DNA of 20,468 nt from Candidatus Woesearchaeota archaeon (GTDB lineage Archaea; Nanobdellota; Nanobdellia; UBA10117). Below the pieces are notes generated by a model. The model had not been told where the DNA came from. It saw nothing but the letters and a program-made list of their open reading frames with translations, and ran no database searches. Of this stretch, positions 1,433 to 17,693 are shown in pieces. Made by a program: the position numbers and the translations under genes. Position 1 is the stretch's first letter. Each line of letters starts with the position of its first letter. The stretch spans positions 19,770 through 40,237 of the forward strand of contig CAZUEL010000005.1 of the NCBI GenBank assembly GCA_964619325.1, in the 5' to 3' direction.

Positions 1433-2257
1433 ATGGCCAAACGTAATTCTATTAATATTGGTGTCTTGATTTTAGTAGTTGTGCTCGCGGTCGGGGTGCT
1501 AGCAGTGGTCTCTACTGGGGCGGTAGCCGCAAATGGCAGCGTCACCGTCACGTGTTCCGATACAGACGGCGGGCAGGCACCGTTTATGAAAGGTACCTGC
1601 ACTGGCAAGGATGCGTATGGTGGCCGGCCCGCGCAGATAGGCTCTTGGACGGACAGCTGTGATTCTCCTTCTATACTTGTGGAATGGTATTGCGACAACA
1701 CAGGCAAGTACTGCAATAAGATGAGTTACGCCGTTACCGGTCTTACTTGCGTCGACGGTGCGCTTGTCCAAAGTTGTACTCCGACGAACGGCGGCGTAGA
1801 AATCTGCGGAAATGGGATTGATGAAGATTGCAGCGGGGCGGATTTGGCCTGTCCAGTAACAACTGGTTGCACAGACGCGGACGCAGATGGTTATGGCGCT
1901 GCAGGCACGGACCTCGTGGGCTGTAGTGCAAGTACAACACTAGCAGACTGCAATGATGCAAATCCAAATGTACATCCCGGTGCTGCAGAAATTTGTGGCG
2001 ATGGGTTTGACCAGGACTGCGACGGCGCGGACGCGGTCTGTCCGACGGCAAACTGCACAGATACAGACGGCGGGCAAGACTTCTTTACTAAAGGCACGTG
2101 CACGGGCTCGTCTGGCGTTGCATACACCGATTCTTGTTATGCCGGTAAATTAAAGGAATATTATTGCAAGGCCGCAGGTAGCGGCGATTATTGCGAAATA
2201 GTATATTATAATTCCTATGCGGGCAAGTGTATGAAGGGCGCATGGATAAATTCATGA
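1433..2257 (+). CDS. Secreted or anchored cysteine-rich protein with two MopE-type putative metal-binding motifs flanked by duplicated DTDGG...KGTCTG modules
   Basis: This is a 274-aa ORF. The hydrophobic N-terminus is NSINIGVLILVVVLAVGVLAVV. CGNGIDEDCSGADLAC and DCNDANPNVHPGAAEICGDGFDQDCDGADAVC match the DCxDxxxxxxPGAxExCdGiDxDCdG pattern of the putative metal-binding (MopE-like) repeat. The N- and C-terminal modules are paralogous (CSDTDGGQAPFMKGTCTG... versus CTDTDGGQDFFTKGTCTG...), and a 17-nt identical DNA stretch, gatacagacggcgggca, occurs near 1559 and near 2060. Confidence 0.75.
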   Translation: MAKRNSINIGVLILVVVLAVGVLAVVSTGAVAANGSVTVTCSDTDGGQAPFMKGTCTGKDAYGGRPAQIGSWTDSCDSPSILVEWYCDNTGKYCNKMSYAVTGLTCVDGALVQSCTPTNGGVEICGNGIDEDCSGADLACPVTTGCTDADADGYGAAGTDLVGCSASTTLADCNDANPNVHPGAAEICGDGFDQDCDGADAVCPTANCTDTDGGQDFFTKGTCTGSSGVAYTDSCYAGKLKEYYCKAAGSGDYCEIVYYNSYAGKCMKGAWINS

Positions 2258-11241: not shown

Positions 11242-11271
11242 TCTTCAAAATACTTTGGGTGTTCCGAATTG

Positions 11272-11280
11272 TTTTTAAAG
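11272..11280 (+). promoter_or_regulatory. TATA-box-like element (TTTTTAAAG) for the tRNA-Lys/tRNA-Ala pair
   Basis: It ends 24 nt upstream of the tRNA-Lys 5' end at 11304. Confidence 0.5.
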
Positions 11281-11303
11281 CACAGTTTAAGTTTCTTCTA
11301 AGT

Positions 11304-11528
11304 GGGTCCGTAGCTCAGCTTGGTTATGCAAGCAGATTGAATTTGCTGCAGCCAAAGAGAGCGCTTGCCTCTTAACAAAGAGTGAAAGCAAGATGTCGAG
11401 GGTTCAAAAGTACAGCCCCTTTCTTCGCGAAGAAAGGTGCTCTACGAAACCACCAAAGAAGGCTGTTGCGATCTGCGATCGCACCAAGTACTTCACGGTT
11501 TCGGTACGAGAAATTCCCTCCGGGCCCG
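11304..11528 (+). tRNA. tRNA-Lys(CTT) with three introns (D-loop about 32 nt, anticodon-loop 12 nt, T-loop about 106 nt)
   Basis: I folded this by hand.
- Acceptor stem: GGGTCCG/CGGGCCC (one T-G pair), discriminator G.
- D stem: GCTC (11313-11316) / GAGC (11359-11362).
- Anticodon stem: CTTGC (11364-11368) / GCAAG (11388-11392), with loop CTCTTA..A (anticodon CTT 11371-11373).
- T stem: GAGGG (11398-11402) / CCCTC (11516-11520).
- Proposed exons: 11304-11326, 11359-11374, 11387-11407 and 11514-11528, which sum to 75 nt.
- Junctions are ambiguous by 1-2 nt. Confidence 0.8.
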
Positions 11529-11534
11529 CTTTAT

Positions 11535-11608
11535 GGGCTGGTAGTTAAACTCGGTATAATGCCCGCATGGCATGCGGGAGGCTAGGGGTTCAAATCCCCT
11601 CCAGTCCA
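11535..11608 (+). tRNA. tRNA-Ala(GGC), intron-less
   Basis: It forms a 74-nt cloverleaf. The acceptor stem is GGGCTGG/CCAGTCC and includes the G3:U70 alanine identity pair. The anticodon stem is CCCGC/GCGGG with loop ATGGCAT. The T arm is AGGGG-TTCAAAT-CCCCT. It lies only 6 nt downstream of tRNA-Lys. Confidence 0.92.
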
Positions 11609-11621
11609 TCTGTGATAAAAC

Positions 11622-12056
11622 ATGGCAGTAAAAATTGTGGTCGGTGGTTTAGTAGTTAAGGGTAAAGAGCTAGCCATCGTCCGCGAGAAAAAGAAAGAAA
11701 TTGCCGGCCTCTGGAACCTTCCGGTTGGCGGGCTGGATGAGAATGAAAAAATCGCTGATGGTGCAAGGAGAGAGATCGAGGAGGAAACCGGCTTGAAAGT
11801 AAAGCTGGAAAAACTGGTTGGTGTCTACCAAAAACCACGAAGGCCGGATGGCACAAACGTGCTGAAATTTATTTTCCTTGCCTCTGTTGTCAGTGGAACG
11901 CTGAAATGCCCGCCAGATTTGCAAGAGGTCAAGTGGATTTCATTTGAAGAGTTGAAAAAAGTCCCGGACTCGCAGTTGAGAGAGGCAGCAGTTATTCAGA
12001 TGGCTGTCCAGGATTATGAAACCAACTCTGCGGTTTCGTTGAAATACTATTCATGA
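11622..12056 (+). CDS. Nudix hydrolase
   Basis: GGLDENEKIADGARREIEEETGL is a complete Nudix box (Gx5Ex7REUxEExGU). Confidence 0.9.
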   Translation: MAVKIVVGGLVVKGKELAIVREKKKEIAGLWNLPVGGLDENEKIADGARREIEEETGLKVKLEKLVGVYQKPRRPDGTNVLKFIFLASVVSGTLKCPPDLQEVKWISFEELKKVPDSQLREAAVIQMAVQDYETNSAVSLKYYS

Positions 12057-12512: not shown

Positions 12513-12781
12513 GGGCCCATAGCTTAGTCCGGTGGAGCGCCGCTCTGATACGGCAGCTTTTCTTTCTCCCAAGAAAATGCAAAGCATTTTCTGGGCGCAG
12601 AAAAATCTTCGGATTTTTCTTGCGTTGAAAGAAAGAAACGCTCCCGGGCATCTAAAGAAAGAAACGGTGGGATTTGAAAATCCCACAAACTTTATTTGTC
12701 CGAGACTCAGCAAGGCGGAGGTCGGCTGTTCGAACATCGCAGAAAGCTTCGCTTTCGCGAGTGAGAGTCAGCCTGGGCCCA
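12513..12781 (+). tRNA. tRNA-Ile(GAT) with two introns (canonical 37/38 intron of 162 nt; T-loop intron of about 33 nt)
   Basis: I folded this by hand.
- Acceptor stem: GGGCCCA/TGGGCCC, discriminator A.
- D stem: GCTT/GAGC.
- Anticodon stem: CCGCT (12540-12544) / GGCGG (12714-12718), with loop CTGATA..A (anticodon GAT 12547-12549).
- Splice-site geometry: CTGA (12545-12548) can pair with TCAG (12707-12710), leaving 3-nt bulges TAC and CAA at the predicted splice sites. This is the classic bulge-helix-bulge geometry.
- T stem: GGCTG (12724-12728) / CAGCC (12769-12773).
- Proposed exons: 12513-12550, 12713-12735 and 12769-12781, which sum to 74 nt. Confidence 0.8.
12628..12666 (+). repeat. Two exact 13-nt direct repeats AAAGAAAGAAACG inside the tRNA-Ile intron
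   Basis: The copies lie at 12628-12640 and 12654-12666. A polypyrimidine tract, GCTTTTCTTTCTC (12556-12568), near the 5' end of the intron is largely complementary to either copy. Confidence 0.7.
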
Positions 12782-15036: not shown

Positions 15037-16688
15037 TGCCAAACATTGAAATCTCACTTTCAGATTTGAAGAAGCTGGTTGGGCCAAAGATGCCTACAGA
15101 CTTGGAAAAACTAGAGCCATACATCTGGATGGTGAAAAGTGAGATTGAGGGCTTGGAAGGTGATGTGCTGACAATAAAGATCGGCGATACAAACAGGCCC
15201 GACCTCTGGTGTGCCGAAGGAATCGCGCGTGAATTGCGGGGCGCGCTGGAAATTGAAAAGGGCTTGAAAGAGTACAAAGCTAAATCCTCAGATTACAAAG
15301 TTTACGTTCACGCAAAGCTGGAAAAGATTCGCCCCTACATTGCCTGCGTTGTCGTGAAAAATGTAAAACTCACAAATGAGTTAATCAAACAAATCATGCA
15401 GCAGCAGGACAAGATTGACGGCACGTATGGCAGGAAACGGGCAAAGACATCAATTGGTTTGTACAAATTTGATTTGCTGAAGTGGCCACTGAAATATGCG
15501 GTTACAAAACCAAATGAAAATGCGTTTGTGCCACTAAGCTTTTCTGATAAACTTACACCAAAACAAATTCTGGAAAAACATCCGAAGGGCCTGGAATACC
15601 AACACTTGCTGAAAGGCCTGCCAGAATATCCAATCTTCCTTGACGCTGATGGGAAAGTTCTATCGATGCCGCCAATCATAAACTCAAATGACTTGGGGCA
15701 GATTGATGAGGGCGTAAATAATATTTTAGTCGAAGTCACTGGCACAGATTATGATGCAGTCAATAATGTTTTGCGGATAATGGCGATGACGTTTGCAGAC
15801 CGCGGGGGCGAGCTGCACCAGGTGGCTATTGATTATACAACACGAAAGCAGGATGTCACGCCGCACTTTGACACAAAACACTTTGAAATCAAGGCAGAAG
15901 ATGTTAGCAAATTGCTTGGCGAAAGATTGACTGCTGAAGATGTCGTCCGCGCGCTGCAAAAGGCAAGATACTCCTGCCTTGCTGAGAAAAATGTCGTCCA
16001 TGTTACCGTGCCCGCTTATCGGACAGATATCATGCACCAAGTGGATATTTACGAAGACGTTGCAATCTTCCACGGGTTTGATAGGTTCAAGCCGGAAACC
16101 ATGGCACTGCCTTCTGTTGGAAAATTATCTGACGTCGAGAAATTATCCCGCAAGATTCGTGAGCTCTGCATCGGCACCGGGGCGCAGGAAGTGATGAATT
16201 TCAGTCTGACAAATGCCGAGTCGCTGTTCGGCCACATGAATAACCCAGTTGAAGATGTGATTGAGATTGAGAATCCTGTTTCATTCACGTTCTCTGTTTT
16301 GCGGAATGGCCTGCTGCCATCGCTACTGGAGTTTTTGTCACATAATACGACAAAGGAATTCCCGCAGAAAATATTTGAGGTTGGCGATGTCGTCGTGGCA
16401 AATCCAAAATCCGAGGTTGGCTCGGACACAGTTCGCAAGTTGGCTTTTGCAATCTCGGACACAAACGCAAACTTCACGGATGCGAAGCAGGCTTTGGAAT
16501 CTGTCGCAAAAGGCATGGGCTGGAAATTAAGCTATAAAGAATTGGAACATTCGAGCTTTATTGCTGGCCGGTGTGCTGCGATAATTAAAGAGGGGAAAGA
16601 AATTGGGGTTATTGGGGAGATCGCGCCGAAGGTTTTGTTGAATTGGGGATTAGGGATGCCTACAGTGGCTTTTGAATTTGCTCTTTAG
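15036..16688 (+). CDS. pheT: Phenylalanine--tRNA ligase beta subunit (archaeal/eukaryal type)
   Basis: The ATG overlaps the pheS TAA by 1 nt (taATG). The 550-aa length and B3/4- and B5-like regions (GDTNRPDLWCAEGIAREL, MPPIINSNDLG) are typical of archaeal PheT. Confidence 0.93.
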   Translation: MPNIEISLSDLKKLVGPKMPTDLEKLEPYIWMVKSEIEGLEGDVLTIKIGDTNRPDLWCAEGIARELRGALEIEKGLKEYKAKSSDYKVYVHAKLEKIRPYIACVVVKNVKLTNELIKQIMQQQDKIDGTYGRKRAKTSIGLYKFDLLKWPLKYAVTKPNENAFVPLSFSDKLTPKQILEKHPKGLEYQHLLKGLPEYPIFLDADGKVLSMPPIINSNDLGQIDEGVNNILVEVTGTDYDAVNNVLRIMAMTFADRGGELHQVAIDYTTRKQDVTPHFDTKHFEIKAEDVSKLLGERLTAEDVVRALQKARYSCLAEKNVVHVTVPAYRTDIMHQVDIYEDVAIFHGFDRFKPETMALPSVGKLSDVEKLSRKIRELCIGTGAQEVMNFSLTNAESLFGHMNNPVEDVIEIENPVSFTFSVLRNGLLPSLLEFLSHNTTKEFPQKIFEVGDVVVANPKSEVGSDTVRKLAFAISDTNANFTDAKQALESVAKGMGWKLSYKELEHSSFIAGRCAAIIKEGKEIGVIGEIAPKVLLNWGLGMPTVAFEFAL

Positions 16689-16730
16689 TTTTCAGTCGTA
16701 CAAAGAAAAACAAAATATCAGAGTGATAAT

Positions 16731-17693
16731 CTACGCCCTAACTCCACTCCCACAAATCGTTTCCAAAATTGCTGTGCATACCTCATACGAATCAGCATTT
16801 GCAGCTGGCCTGCGGTCTTCTAGGTAGCCCTTGCCGGCCTGTGCAACGTGCAGGGGAATCCTGACGGATGCACCGCGGTCTGCAACGCCCCACCGGAATG
16901 TGTTGATGTCACAGGTTTCATGCCGGCCTGTCAGGCGCTTTTCGTTTCCAGCACCATAGACTTCGATGTGTTTGGCATGGCTTGTGCTAAGTTTTTCACA
17001 GGCTGCCTCGATGTGTTTAATGCCGCCAGCATCGCGCATATATCTCGTACTGAAATTTGTGTGCGCACCCGCGCCGTTCCAATCTCCTGCTTCTGGTTTT
17101 GGGTCGAGCTTTGCGCTGATGCCGTGGTCCTCGCCGATTCTATAAAGAAGCCATCTGGCCAGCCACAACTCATCCGCAATTTGCGGCGGCGAAAGCGGCC
17201 CGACCTGGAACTCCCATTGCGCTGGCATTACTTCTGCATTTATGCCGCCGATTTTCAGGCCAGCAGCCAGGCAAGCCTTCAGATGTGCCTCCACGAGCTC
17301 GCGGCCGTAAACCTCATCACTGCCGACGCCGCAATAATACTTGCCCTGCGGCCCAGGAAAGCCCGCACCAGTCGGCCATCTCAACGGGCGAACACCGTCT
17401 TTATCGTACAAAGTATATTCCTGTTCGATTCCGAACCAGGGCTCCGCATCCTTGGAACTTTCCGCAGCAGCCCTTAATCGCGCCCGTGTGTTAGATTTGT
17501 GCGGCGTTCCGTCCGCGTTGAGAACTTCGCACAACACTAGTATGTGTGGCTGGCCCCGTATCGGATCGGGAACATAATGGACTGGGCGTAAAATAATATC
17601 GCTTTGCGTTGTTGTGGCTTGGGCGGTGCTCGAGCCATCTGACGTCCAGTCGAGAATCTGTTCGAGAGATATGCTGCCAGTTAATTCCAGCAC
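16731..17693 (-). CDS. glnA: Glutamine synthetase, type II (eukaryote-like); the longest uninterrupted ORF lacks the conserved N-terminal strand
   Basis: GSII hallmarks are present: WFGIEQEYTL, FPGPQGKYYCGVG, NAEVMPAQWEFQVGP, GAGAHTNFS, RLTGRHETCDINTFRWGVADRGASVRIP and GYLEDRRPAANADSYEV. The GTG start at 17693 is only the first start codon after an in-frame TAG (see the next feature). Confidence 0.9.
   Translation of the reverse strand: MLELTGSISLEQILDWTSDGSSTAQATTTQSDIILRPVHYVPDPIRGQPHILVLCEVLNADGTPHKSNTRARLRAAAESSKDAEPWFGIEQEYTLYDKDGVRPLRWPTGAGFPGPQGKYYCGVGSDEVYGRELVEAHLKACLAAGLKIGGINAEVMPAQWEFQVGPLSPPQIADELWLARWLLYRIGEDHGISAKLDPKPEAGDWNGAGAHTNFSTRYMRDAGGIKHIEAACEKLSTSHAKHIEVYGAGNEKRLTGRHETCDINTFRWGVADRGASVRIPLHVAQAGKGYLEDRRPAANADSYEVCTAILETICGSGVRA

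Follow-up and report, generated by a model that had tools for sequence, protein, structure and literature searches.

A tRNA-Lys(CTT) gene with three probable introns in a DPANN archaeon, and a dispersed intron repeat whose tracts co-vary as a triple helix would require

What is known of archaeal tRNA genes that are interrupted more than once? Archaeal tRNA genes that contain several introns, among them BHB introns in non-canonical places, were reportedly described by Sugahara in 2007 and 2008. Crenarchaeal tRNA genes have been reported with three introns (Yoshihisa 2014, PMC4090602), and the multi-intron genes of Thermoproteales, ARMAN and Nanoarchaeota resemble the locus analysed here in having up to three introns per gene, at the same sites (D loop, 37/38 and T loop); their junctions are of BHB or relaxed form and their enzymes EndA and RtcB (PMC4090602), as would be predicted for this locus. 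Near-identical introns across tRNA identities and positions in Thermoproteales have been taken to reflect intron spread (Fujishima et al. 2010, as summarised in PMC4090602). Cleavage at relaxed sites has been tied to loop insertions in EndA, and the tRNA sets of DPANN archaea are incomplete, probably through undetected disrupted genes (Kaneta 2018, PMC5829648); such hidden genes were predicted there and not described.

Set beside these systems, the tRNA-Lys(CTT) gene reported here joins an established kind of gene, the multi-intron archaeal tRNA, of which, taken alone, it is one further example. It differs in its groundwater DPANN host, which has a single alpha4-like EndA with no obvious specificity loop, and in its genomic setting, where a T-loop intron sits at one place in roughly three out of four recognisable tRNA genes. 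Like the transposed introns of Thermoproteales, in so far as these are summarised in PMC4090602, a repeat cassette in its T-loop intron is found in non-orthologous tRNAs at different positions. Measured against the same summary, the unit held in common here is a structured cassette with a hairpin and not a whole intron, and it also lies outside tRNA genes and displays three-strand co-variation.

The window, that is, the whole stretch of 20,468 nt that was analysed, comes from a small groundwater DPANN archaeon of the Nanoarchaeota/Woesearchaeota type; the relatives of its RtcB, from groundwater Nanobdellati, Nanoarchaeota and Woesearchaeota MAGs, point to this lineage. An earlier note on the window had read 11304-11528 as a tRNA-Lys(CTT) gene with three introns, and the exons that it proposed, once joined, form a 75-nt cloverleaf that ARAGORN calls tRNA-Lys(CTT). 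The hairpins, the palindrome and the 6-nt gap before tRNA-Ala that it listed are likewise all in place (Table 1). In the raw window, ARAGORN and the Rfam tRNA model detect the tRNA-Ala alone, and so miss the tRNA-Lys(CTT); no credible Rfam match falls on 11304-11528, and a permissive scan of 11250-11650 returned chance-level matches only. The acceptor strands are GGGTCCG (11304-10) and CGGGCCC (11521-27), and CCA is not encoded. We conclude that this is very probably a working tRNA-Lys(CTT) gene, with three BHB-type introns that EndA would cut and exons that RtcB would join.

Table 1. Coordinates of the tRNA-Lys(CTT) locus, of the repeat cassette in its T-loop intron, and of a second intron family.
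Feature	Position	Strand	Basis or remark
TATA-like box TTTTTAAA	11272..11279	+	25 nt before tRNA 5' end; putative promoter
Exon 1: acceptor 5' strand, D-stem 5' strand, D loop (AGCTTGGTTA)	11304..11326	+	edge ambiguous by one A
Intron 1: D loop, before position 21/22, 32 nt	11327..11358	+	11326-11357 yields identical product
Exon 2: D-stem 3' strand, anticodon-stem 5' strand, loop CTCTTA; anticodon CTT 11371-73	11359..11374	+	
Intron 2: canonical 37/38, 12 nt, relaxed bulge-helix-loop	11375..11386	+	fold; edge ambiguous by one A, product unchanged
Exon 3: A38, anticodon-stem 3' strand, variable loop, T-stem 5' strand, TTCAAA	11387..11408	+	edge set by BHB geometry
Intron 3: T loop 59/60, 106 nt	11409..11514	+	fold
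Exon 4: T60, T-stem 3' strand, acceptor 3' strand, discriminator G (11528)	11515..11528	+	
Repeat cassette, ~53 nt	11410..11462	+	covariance model R1 and hits, strand register, mirror rule, pair counts
Cassette P1a	11410..11415		
Cassette C tract	11416..11419		
Cassette S1 (TTTCTT)	11420..11425		
Cassette loop	11426..11429		
Cassette S2 (AAGAAA)	11430..11435		
Cassette X (GGTG)	11436..11439		
Cassette P1b	11440..11445		
Cassette linker (GAAAC)	11446..11450		
Cassette Y (CACC)	11451..11454		
Cassette S3 (AAAGAAGG)	11455..11462		
P3 hairpin TGCGATC-TGC-GATCGCA	11467..11483	+	sequence variable among copies, stem nearly always perfect inverted repeat
GGTTTCG, complement of CGAAACC (11445-51, includes linker)	11497..11503	+	fold; helix closes 3' half of intron 3
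Uninterrupted tRNA-Ala(GGC), G3.U70	11535..11608	+	ARAGORN; Rfam tRNA model 60.8 bits; 6-nt spacer after tRNA-Lys
Second intron family, tRNA-Lys(TTT) of this genome	G000:C14:4931-5262	-	
Second intron family, tRNA-Lys(CTT) of G016	L140 (G016:C26) ~1560-1690		

How would the three inserts be excised? Each strand of a BHB comprises a 4-nt strand of the central helix followed by a 3-nt bulge, which is cut after its second base. The T-loop site comes nearest to this geometry: in the fold, the outer helix is the T stem, the central helix joins TTC(A) at 11403-06 to (A)GAA at 11509-12 by three pairs and an A.A mismatch, the 3-nt bulges are AA↓A and AT↓T, and the inner helix pairs GTAC (11410-13) with GTAC (11504-07). 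The insert is placed at 11409-11514 because this satisfies the BHB geometry and leaves TTCAAAT as the mature T loop, which is also the T loop of an intron-less orthologue; the length of 106 nt given in the earlier note therefore holds, with both edges moved one base to the right. The T arm with its intron folds at -44.1 kcal/mol (z = -4.7 against shuffles), and by this z-score and the recurrence of the palindrome region in many copies, its structure exceeds chance. The two ends of the intron, A↓GTACAG ... GTAC(G)AGAAA↓T, are found again in the T loops of tRNA-Lys(TTT), Thr(TGT), Thr(CGT) and Glu(CTC) of related genomes.

The other two sites are more relaxed. Around the D-loop intron, the predicted D arm runs from the D stem through a 3x3 internal loop, a TTGG(T)/(G)CCAA helix and a small bulge to a GCAG/CTGC hairpin. 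The central helix is thus TTGG (11320-23) with CCAA (11352-55), the inner helix is TGCA/TGCA plus that hairpin, and the 5' and 3' sites lie in the small bulge and in the internal loop beside the D stem, respectively. Both the site and the 3' end (AGCCAAAGA↓GAG) recur in tRNA-Lys(TTT), and the TTGG/CCAA pairing recurs in tRNA-Arg(CCT). In the anticodon loop, the 12-nt intron pairs CTCTT with AAGAG in a helix stacked directly on the anticodon stem; it has no inner helix, and the 5' site falls in a 4-nt loop and the 3' site in a 5-nt bulge. Its BHB had been called imperfect, which the fold bears out, and the intron itself had been thought doubtful, a doubt that is lessened by a homologous 12-nt mini-intron in the orthologue of the related genome G016, which has the same CTCTT/AAGAG pairing and a canonical 3-nt 3' bulge. 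The 3x3 internal loop of the D-loop site, the 5-nt bulge of the 12-nt intron and the A.A mismatch at the T-loop site nevertheless count against these assignments.

At every site one strand of the central helix would come from a tRNA loop and the other from the 3' end of the intron that interrupts it, as TTGG/CCAA in the D loop, CTCT/AGAG in the anticodon loop and TTC/GAA in the T loop. Of the three loop sequences, two are conserved in most tRNAs, which may account for the repeated use of the identical three sites across the genome. We propose that the introns carry at their 3' ends the complements of conserved tRNA loop motifs, a design that would explain why their sites recur.

Orthologues, located through the anticodon-arm exon, provide a second line of evidence. 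The tRNA-Lys(CTT) of G028, a genome of the same order, has no introns and aligns gap-free with the predicted spliced product (64/75 identical), most differences being paired changes in stems. The G014 orthologue lacks the D-loop intron and has a ~73-nt intron at 37/38 and one of ~13 nt in the T loop; that of G016, also without the D-loop intron, combines its mini-intron at 37/38 with a ~130-nt T-loop intron of an unrelated family; and that of G021 keeps the exons and has inserts at partly different sites. The exons are conserved while the inserts turn over in presence, place, length and sequence, as would be expected of introns, and the comparison supports the three-intron reading. The TATA-like box also stands ~30 nt upstream of the G014 and G016 orthologues in sequence comparison, and in both genomes tRNA-Ala again follows, after 3 nt in G014 and 1 nt in G016. 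The gene is probably transcribed from this box together with the downstream tRNA-Ala, and the pairing of the two genes in the two relatives fits a shared precursor.

Is there a second, uninterrupted copy that could do the work? In the 92% complete assembly of this genome (781 kb, 51 contigs), neither BLAST with the spliced 75-mer nor a search for CTT anticodon arms found another tRNA-Lys(CTT) gene, interrupted or not; an uninterrupted one that alone was expressed had been named as fatal to the three-intron interpretation. Such a copy could sit in the unassembled part of the genome, and the gene might be dispensable if tRNA-Lys(UUU) reads AAG.

Genes with three introns are ordinary in this genome. 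Hand parsing assigns three inserts each to tRNA-Lys(TTT) on contig C14, to tRNA-Arg(CCT) and to two tRNA-Val genes that carry the cassette, and those of tRNA-Lys(TTT) occupy the identical three positions with different sequences. The earlier note had set the gene apart as belonging to the maximum class reported; the class is indeed known, from crenarchaea (PMC4090602), and the distinction disappears within this genome, where the Lys(TTT), Arg(CCT) and two Val genes are alike. D-loop introns here end in CCAA, opposite the TTGG of the loop. T-loop inserts of 11-160 nt occur at the same place in ~27 of ~35 recognisable tRNA genes, the other ~8 being uninterrupted (approximate counts from a heuristic census whose script missed the T arm of tRNA-Lys(CTT) itself), and most of them end in GAA(A)NT just before the 3' strand of the T stem. 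The Rfam tRNA model finds only six tRNAs above its cut-off in the assembly, which makes this genome a case of hidden disrupted DPANN tRNA genes. DPANN tRNA sets thus look incomplete because standard tools miss most of the genes, and tRNA-Lys(CTT) shows why.

The enzymes are encoded as well. RtcB ligase is matched at 565 bits, and EndA is the product of a single gene (L071 1474-2196, minus strand, on contig C13) of 240 aa with both the N- and C-terminal domains (PF02778 and PF01974); no EndA paralogue was found in the assembly. EndA aligns with the alpha4 enzyme of M. jannaschii over residues 84-240, and since only single-residue gaps separate it from that strict alpha4 enzyme, no specificity loop is seen. 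The protein lacks an insertion of the kind linked to relaxed sites (Kaneta 2018, PMC5829648), which counts against the site assignments, yet the genome is full of non-canonical introns. It also has a low-complexity N-terminal extension of ~60 residues, and its TTG start is uncertain.

A second intron family (GGTCAGGAGGAGCGTC...CGCGGTTCCGAGA) is common to the 37/38 intron of tRNA-Lys(TTT) in this genome and to the T-loop intron of tRNA-Lys(CTT) in G016. It lies at 37/38 in one gene and in the T loop in the other, so this second type of intron also appears to have moved between positions.

What, then, is the structured core of the T-loop intron? A search of related genomes with 11250-11650 gave many matches, which covered 11410-11490 only, and BLAST within the genome found six additional copies of what we term the cassette. 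A covariance model, R1, built from 22 aligned copies finds ~15 forward copies in this genome and 12-29 matches each, on both strands, in G008, G014, G016, G012, G006, G018 and G023; it found none in eleven genomes of family f4, and no match to it lies inside an open frame. No cassette was found in ~130 genomes of other orders of the class. The perfect 20-nt palindrome (11418-11437) and the second hairpin (11467-11483) singled out by the earlier note are therefore real and are not peculiar to this gene: the former is P2 (S1 and S2 with their flanks) and the latter P3 of a dispersed repeat, and the copies elsewhere in the genome whose existence it had raised are those of the cassette.

Most copies lie in tRNA introns. 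In this genome the cassette is found in the T loop of tRNA-Lys, at 37/38 in tRNA-Val (three copies), Gly, His, Pro and Cys, and in the D loop of Arg; in relatives it is found in the T loops of tRNA-Lys(TTT), Thr and Glu. Among 92 copies whose flanks were read by eye (the automatic classifier mislabels D-loop and intergenic copies), anticodon loops predominate; 13 copies lie in T loops, about a dozen in D loops and a minority elsewhere. All those recognisable as tRNA-intron copies are in the sense orientation and begin 0-1 nt after the 5' splice site. Three copies in this genome lie outside tRNA genes: in the rpl37ae-rpoP spacer, antisense before rpoL, and in an AT-rich spacer. The first (G000:C11:18994-19071; L018 1501-1578) is 95% identical to the Lys intron over 78 nt and shares with it the cassette and P3 but lacks the BHB-forming tail, which defines cassette plus P3 as the candidate mobile unit. 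On this distribution, cassette plus P3 appears to be a recently mobile repeat of the order; it lies right where a tRNA intron begins, at each of the three sites, and less often in places outside tRNA genes. No account of an element of this kind in the tRNA introns of archaea turned up in a literature search. The spread of tRNA introns may be seen here at the level of sequence, as a mobile structured core to which is joined a short 3' tail complementary to conserved motifs of the tRNA loops.

The cassette copies also record how its strands are related. Pairing and register were counted in 73 distinct parsed copies, and X:Y was compared with the C tract in the 22-row seed alignment. When Y and S3, read 5' to 3' after the fixed linker, are laid against S2 and X, read 3' to 5', the first 1-4 positions form Watson-Crick or G.U pairs and positions 5-10 are identical purines in 67-73 of the 73 copies, without slip. 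The first A-run of S3 equals the first A-run of S2 read in reverse in 72/73 copies, for run lengths of 1-5 (permutation p ~1e-5), whereas a direct-repeat reading of S3 against S2 fits only 21. The C tract, X and Y vary in length together (4, 3, 2 or 1), while P1 (6 positions) and the linker (5 nt) are near-constant. P1 shows at least 10 compensatory variants, with C.C at its fourth position in 70/73 copies. X:Y remains paired through GC, CG, UA and UG states in the seed alignment, and in 6-12 of the 22 rows the X columns lose their pairing with the C tract, which is itself invariant; X:Y is therefore a selected pairing, and a nested pairing of C tract with X, which is not maintained when X changes, was rejected. 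Since X:Y crosses P1, the arrangement is a pseudoknot. X:Y counts 16 G.T pairs against one A.C on the sense strand. P3, in contrast, has no G.T pair in 58 distinct stems (~460 pairs), all essentially perfect inverted repeats, and P2 is often a loop-less palindrome. Two further candidates were set aside: pairing of the linker with a complement farther downstream, found in only 19/73 copies (control mean 6.8, maximum 15), was rejected as a core feature, and for a kink-turn no GA/AG signature was seen.

Taken together, S1, S2 and S3 change in concert as a triple helix would require, as T/A/A and C/G/G, which is the signature of an antiparallel purine-motif fold-back triplex (A•A-T(U) and G•G-C), and the small pseudoknot would anchor it. 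This co-variation is unusually clean evidence for purine-type base triples, a type disputed in RNA. The H-type pseudoknot RNA triplexes (telomerase RNA, the SAM-II and preQ1-II riboswitches, ENE/MALAT1) likewise join a hairpin to a knotted stem, with a third strand running along the hairpin, but that strand is U-rich and parallel to the purine strand (PMC7583470), whereas the third tract of the cassette on the tRNA-sense strand is purine-rich and antiparallel, and a U•A-U version would exist on the antisense strand only. A pyrimidine-motif RNA triplex pseudoknot was rejected as a reading of the cassette on these grounds.

In which molecule would such a triplex form? The tracts may form it in the intron RNA, in layers of A•A-U and G•G-C for which the anchor would be X:Y, a stem knotted with P1. 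The outcome would be a compact portable module beside the 5' splice site, which might prevent long introns from interfering with the folding of the pre-tRNA or might stabilise the excised intron. The slip-free register, the mirror rule, the near-constant lengths of P1 and linker and the retention of X:Y where pairing of X with the C tract is lost all argue for this, and the excess of G.T over A.C in X:Y, together with the sense orientation of the tRNA-intron copies and their start beside the splice site, points to the sense strand. However, folded RNAs normally use the pyrimidine motif, and the purine motif in RNA is disputed (Brown 2020, PMC7583470); it is G•G-C layers that make the motif stable (Holder 2015, PMC4666352), and these tracts are rich in A; and in the Lys intron the linker can pair instead with 11497-11503. 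We therefore put forward formation in RNA only tentatively. The same doubt attaches to its fullest version, in which the cassette is a natural all-RNA purine-motif triplex, some eight layers of A•A-U and G•G-C deep, with a pseudoknot as its lock (X:Y and P1 cross, and the 5-nt linker joins them), and serving as a portable 5'-splice-site 'handle' that lets introns colonise any tRNA loop in the lineage; this we consider rather unlikely, although, if true, it would be the first co-variation-supported example of the purine-motif type in cellular RNA. A triplex that forms in RNA would be a new natural RNA fold, and one that forms in DNA would be an archaeal counterpart, living inside genes, of the intrastrand-triplex repeats of bacteria. 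Those repeats, the class II intrastrand purine-motif triplex repeats (PIT / TMECO), are said to have been described by Hoyne in 2000. Like the cassette, they are dispersed and multi-copy and place a 5' pyrimidine, a purine and a mirror purine tract on one strand, but they are DNA elements of intergenic regions, rich in G/C, and their loops measure 1-6 nt (Holder 2015, PMC4666352). The cassette is A/T-rich, lies mostly inside transcribed tRNA introns, and has as its second connector a structured stretch of 19 nt (X, P1b, linker and Y) that forms the pseudoknot; it thus resembles PIT/TMECO in design and, departing from their short-loop, G/C-rich definition, would not be counted among them.

The resemblance supports the alternative that the cassette is foremost a selfish palindromic intrastrand-triplex DNA repeat, like PIT/TMECO or REP of bacteria, whose hairpins and triplex form in single-stranded or supercoiled DNA during spread and which survives in tRNA genes only inside a spliceable intron. 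Its domains follow the order seen in class II DNA triplex motifs, known to fold in vitro (PMC4666352), at a time when formation of the purine type in RNA is doubted (PMC7583470); the P3 stems without G.T and the loop-less P2 palindromes suit DNA, and so do the copies outside tRNA genes and the sharing of cassette and P3, without the BHB tail, between the spacer copy and the Lys intron. Against this, neither a Y1 transposase nor TnpB was found in the assembly (two tyrosine-recombinase matches were), the G.T excess of X:Y falls on the sense strand, and a strict sense orientation with a start exactly at the 5' splice site suits a role in RNA as well. A DNA repeat of this kind seems to us quite possible, if still short of probable. 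That the whole locus is instead a tRNA-Lys gene in decay, from which the many repeat insertions have taken the capacity to yield a functional tRNA, might be argued from the two thirds of it that is insert, from the relaxed motifs at two of its three sites and from the failure of standard tRNA finders to see it. It is nonetheless highly improbable: the exons are intact and make a perfect cloverleaf, whose differences from its orthologues are mostly paired changes in stems, relatives have kept both the promoter-like box and the neighbouring tRNA-Ala, most tRNA genes of the genome are similarly interrupted, and the assembly holds no other Lys(CTT) gene that was found.

Individual copies show further variation. 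In tRNA-Ile(GAT) (window 12513-12780; G000:C5:32282-32549), a cassette of the CGGCAG/CTCCCG type follows directly on CTGATA at ~12551 and has an additional hairpin element nested in the P2 loop, an insertion because of which R1 missed it. The tRNA-Ala of this genome is uninterrupted, unlike its G014 counterpart beside tRNA-Lys(CTT) (L002, G014:C112, 700-975), which has D-loop and T-loop introns, the latter with a cassette that again contains a nested insertion in P2. The 388-nt tRNA-Pro(TGG) gene (G000:C16 ~16396-16783, minus strand) seemingly carries two cassettes, one in the D region, interrupted by a run of N, and one at 37/38. The antisense cassette at G000:C19:1716-1769 lies just upstream of a gene that we take to be RNA polymerase subunit L-like, and its tracts on the mRNA strand would spell a U•A-U / C+•G-C triplex. 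Finally, the rpl37ae-rpoP copy is bracketed by a degenerate 23-nt duplicate (ATGTGATACAAATGCTTTGATTG) of the true rpoP start, and it looks as if the element had entered the 5' end of that gene and the start had been duplicated.
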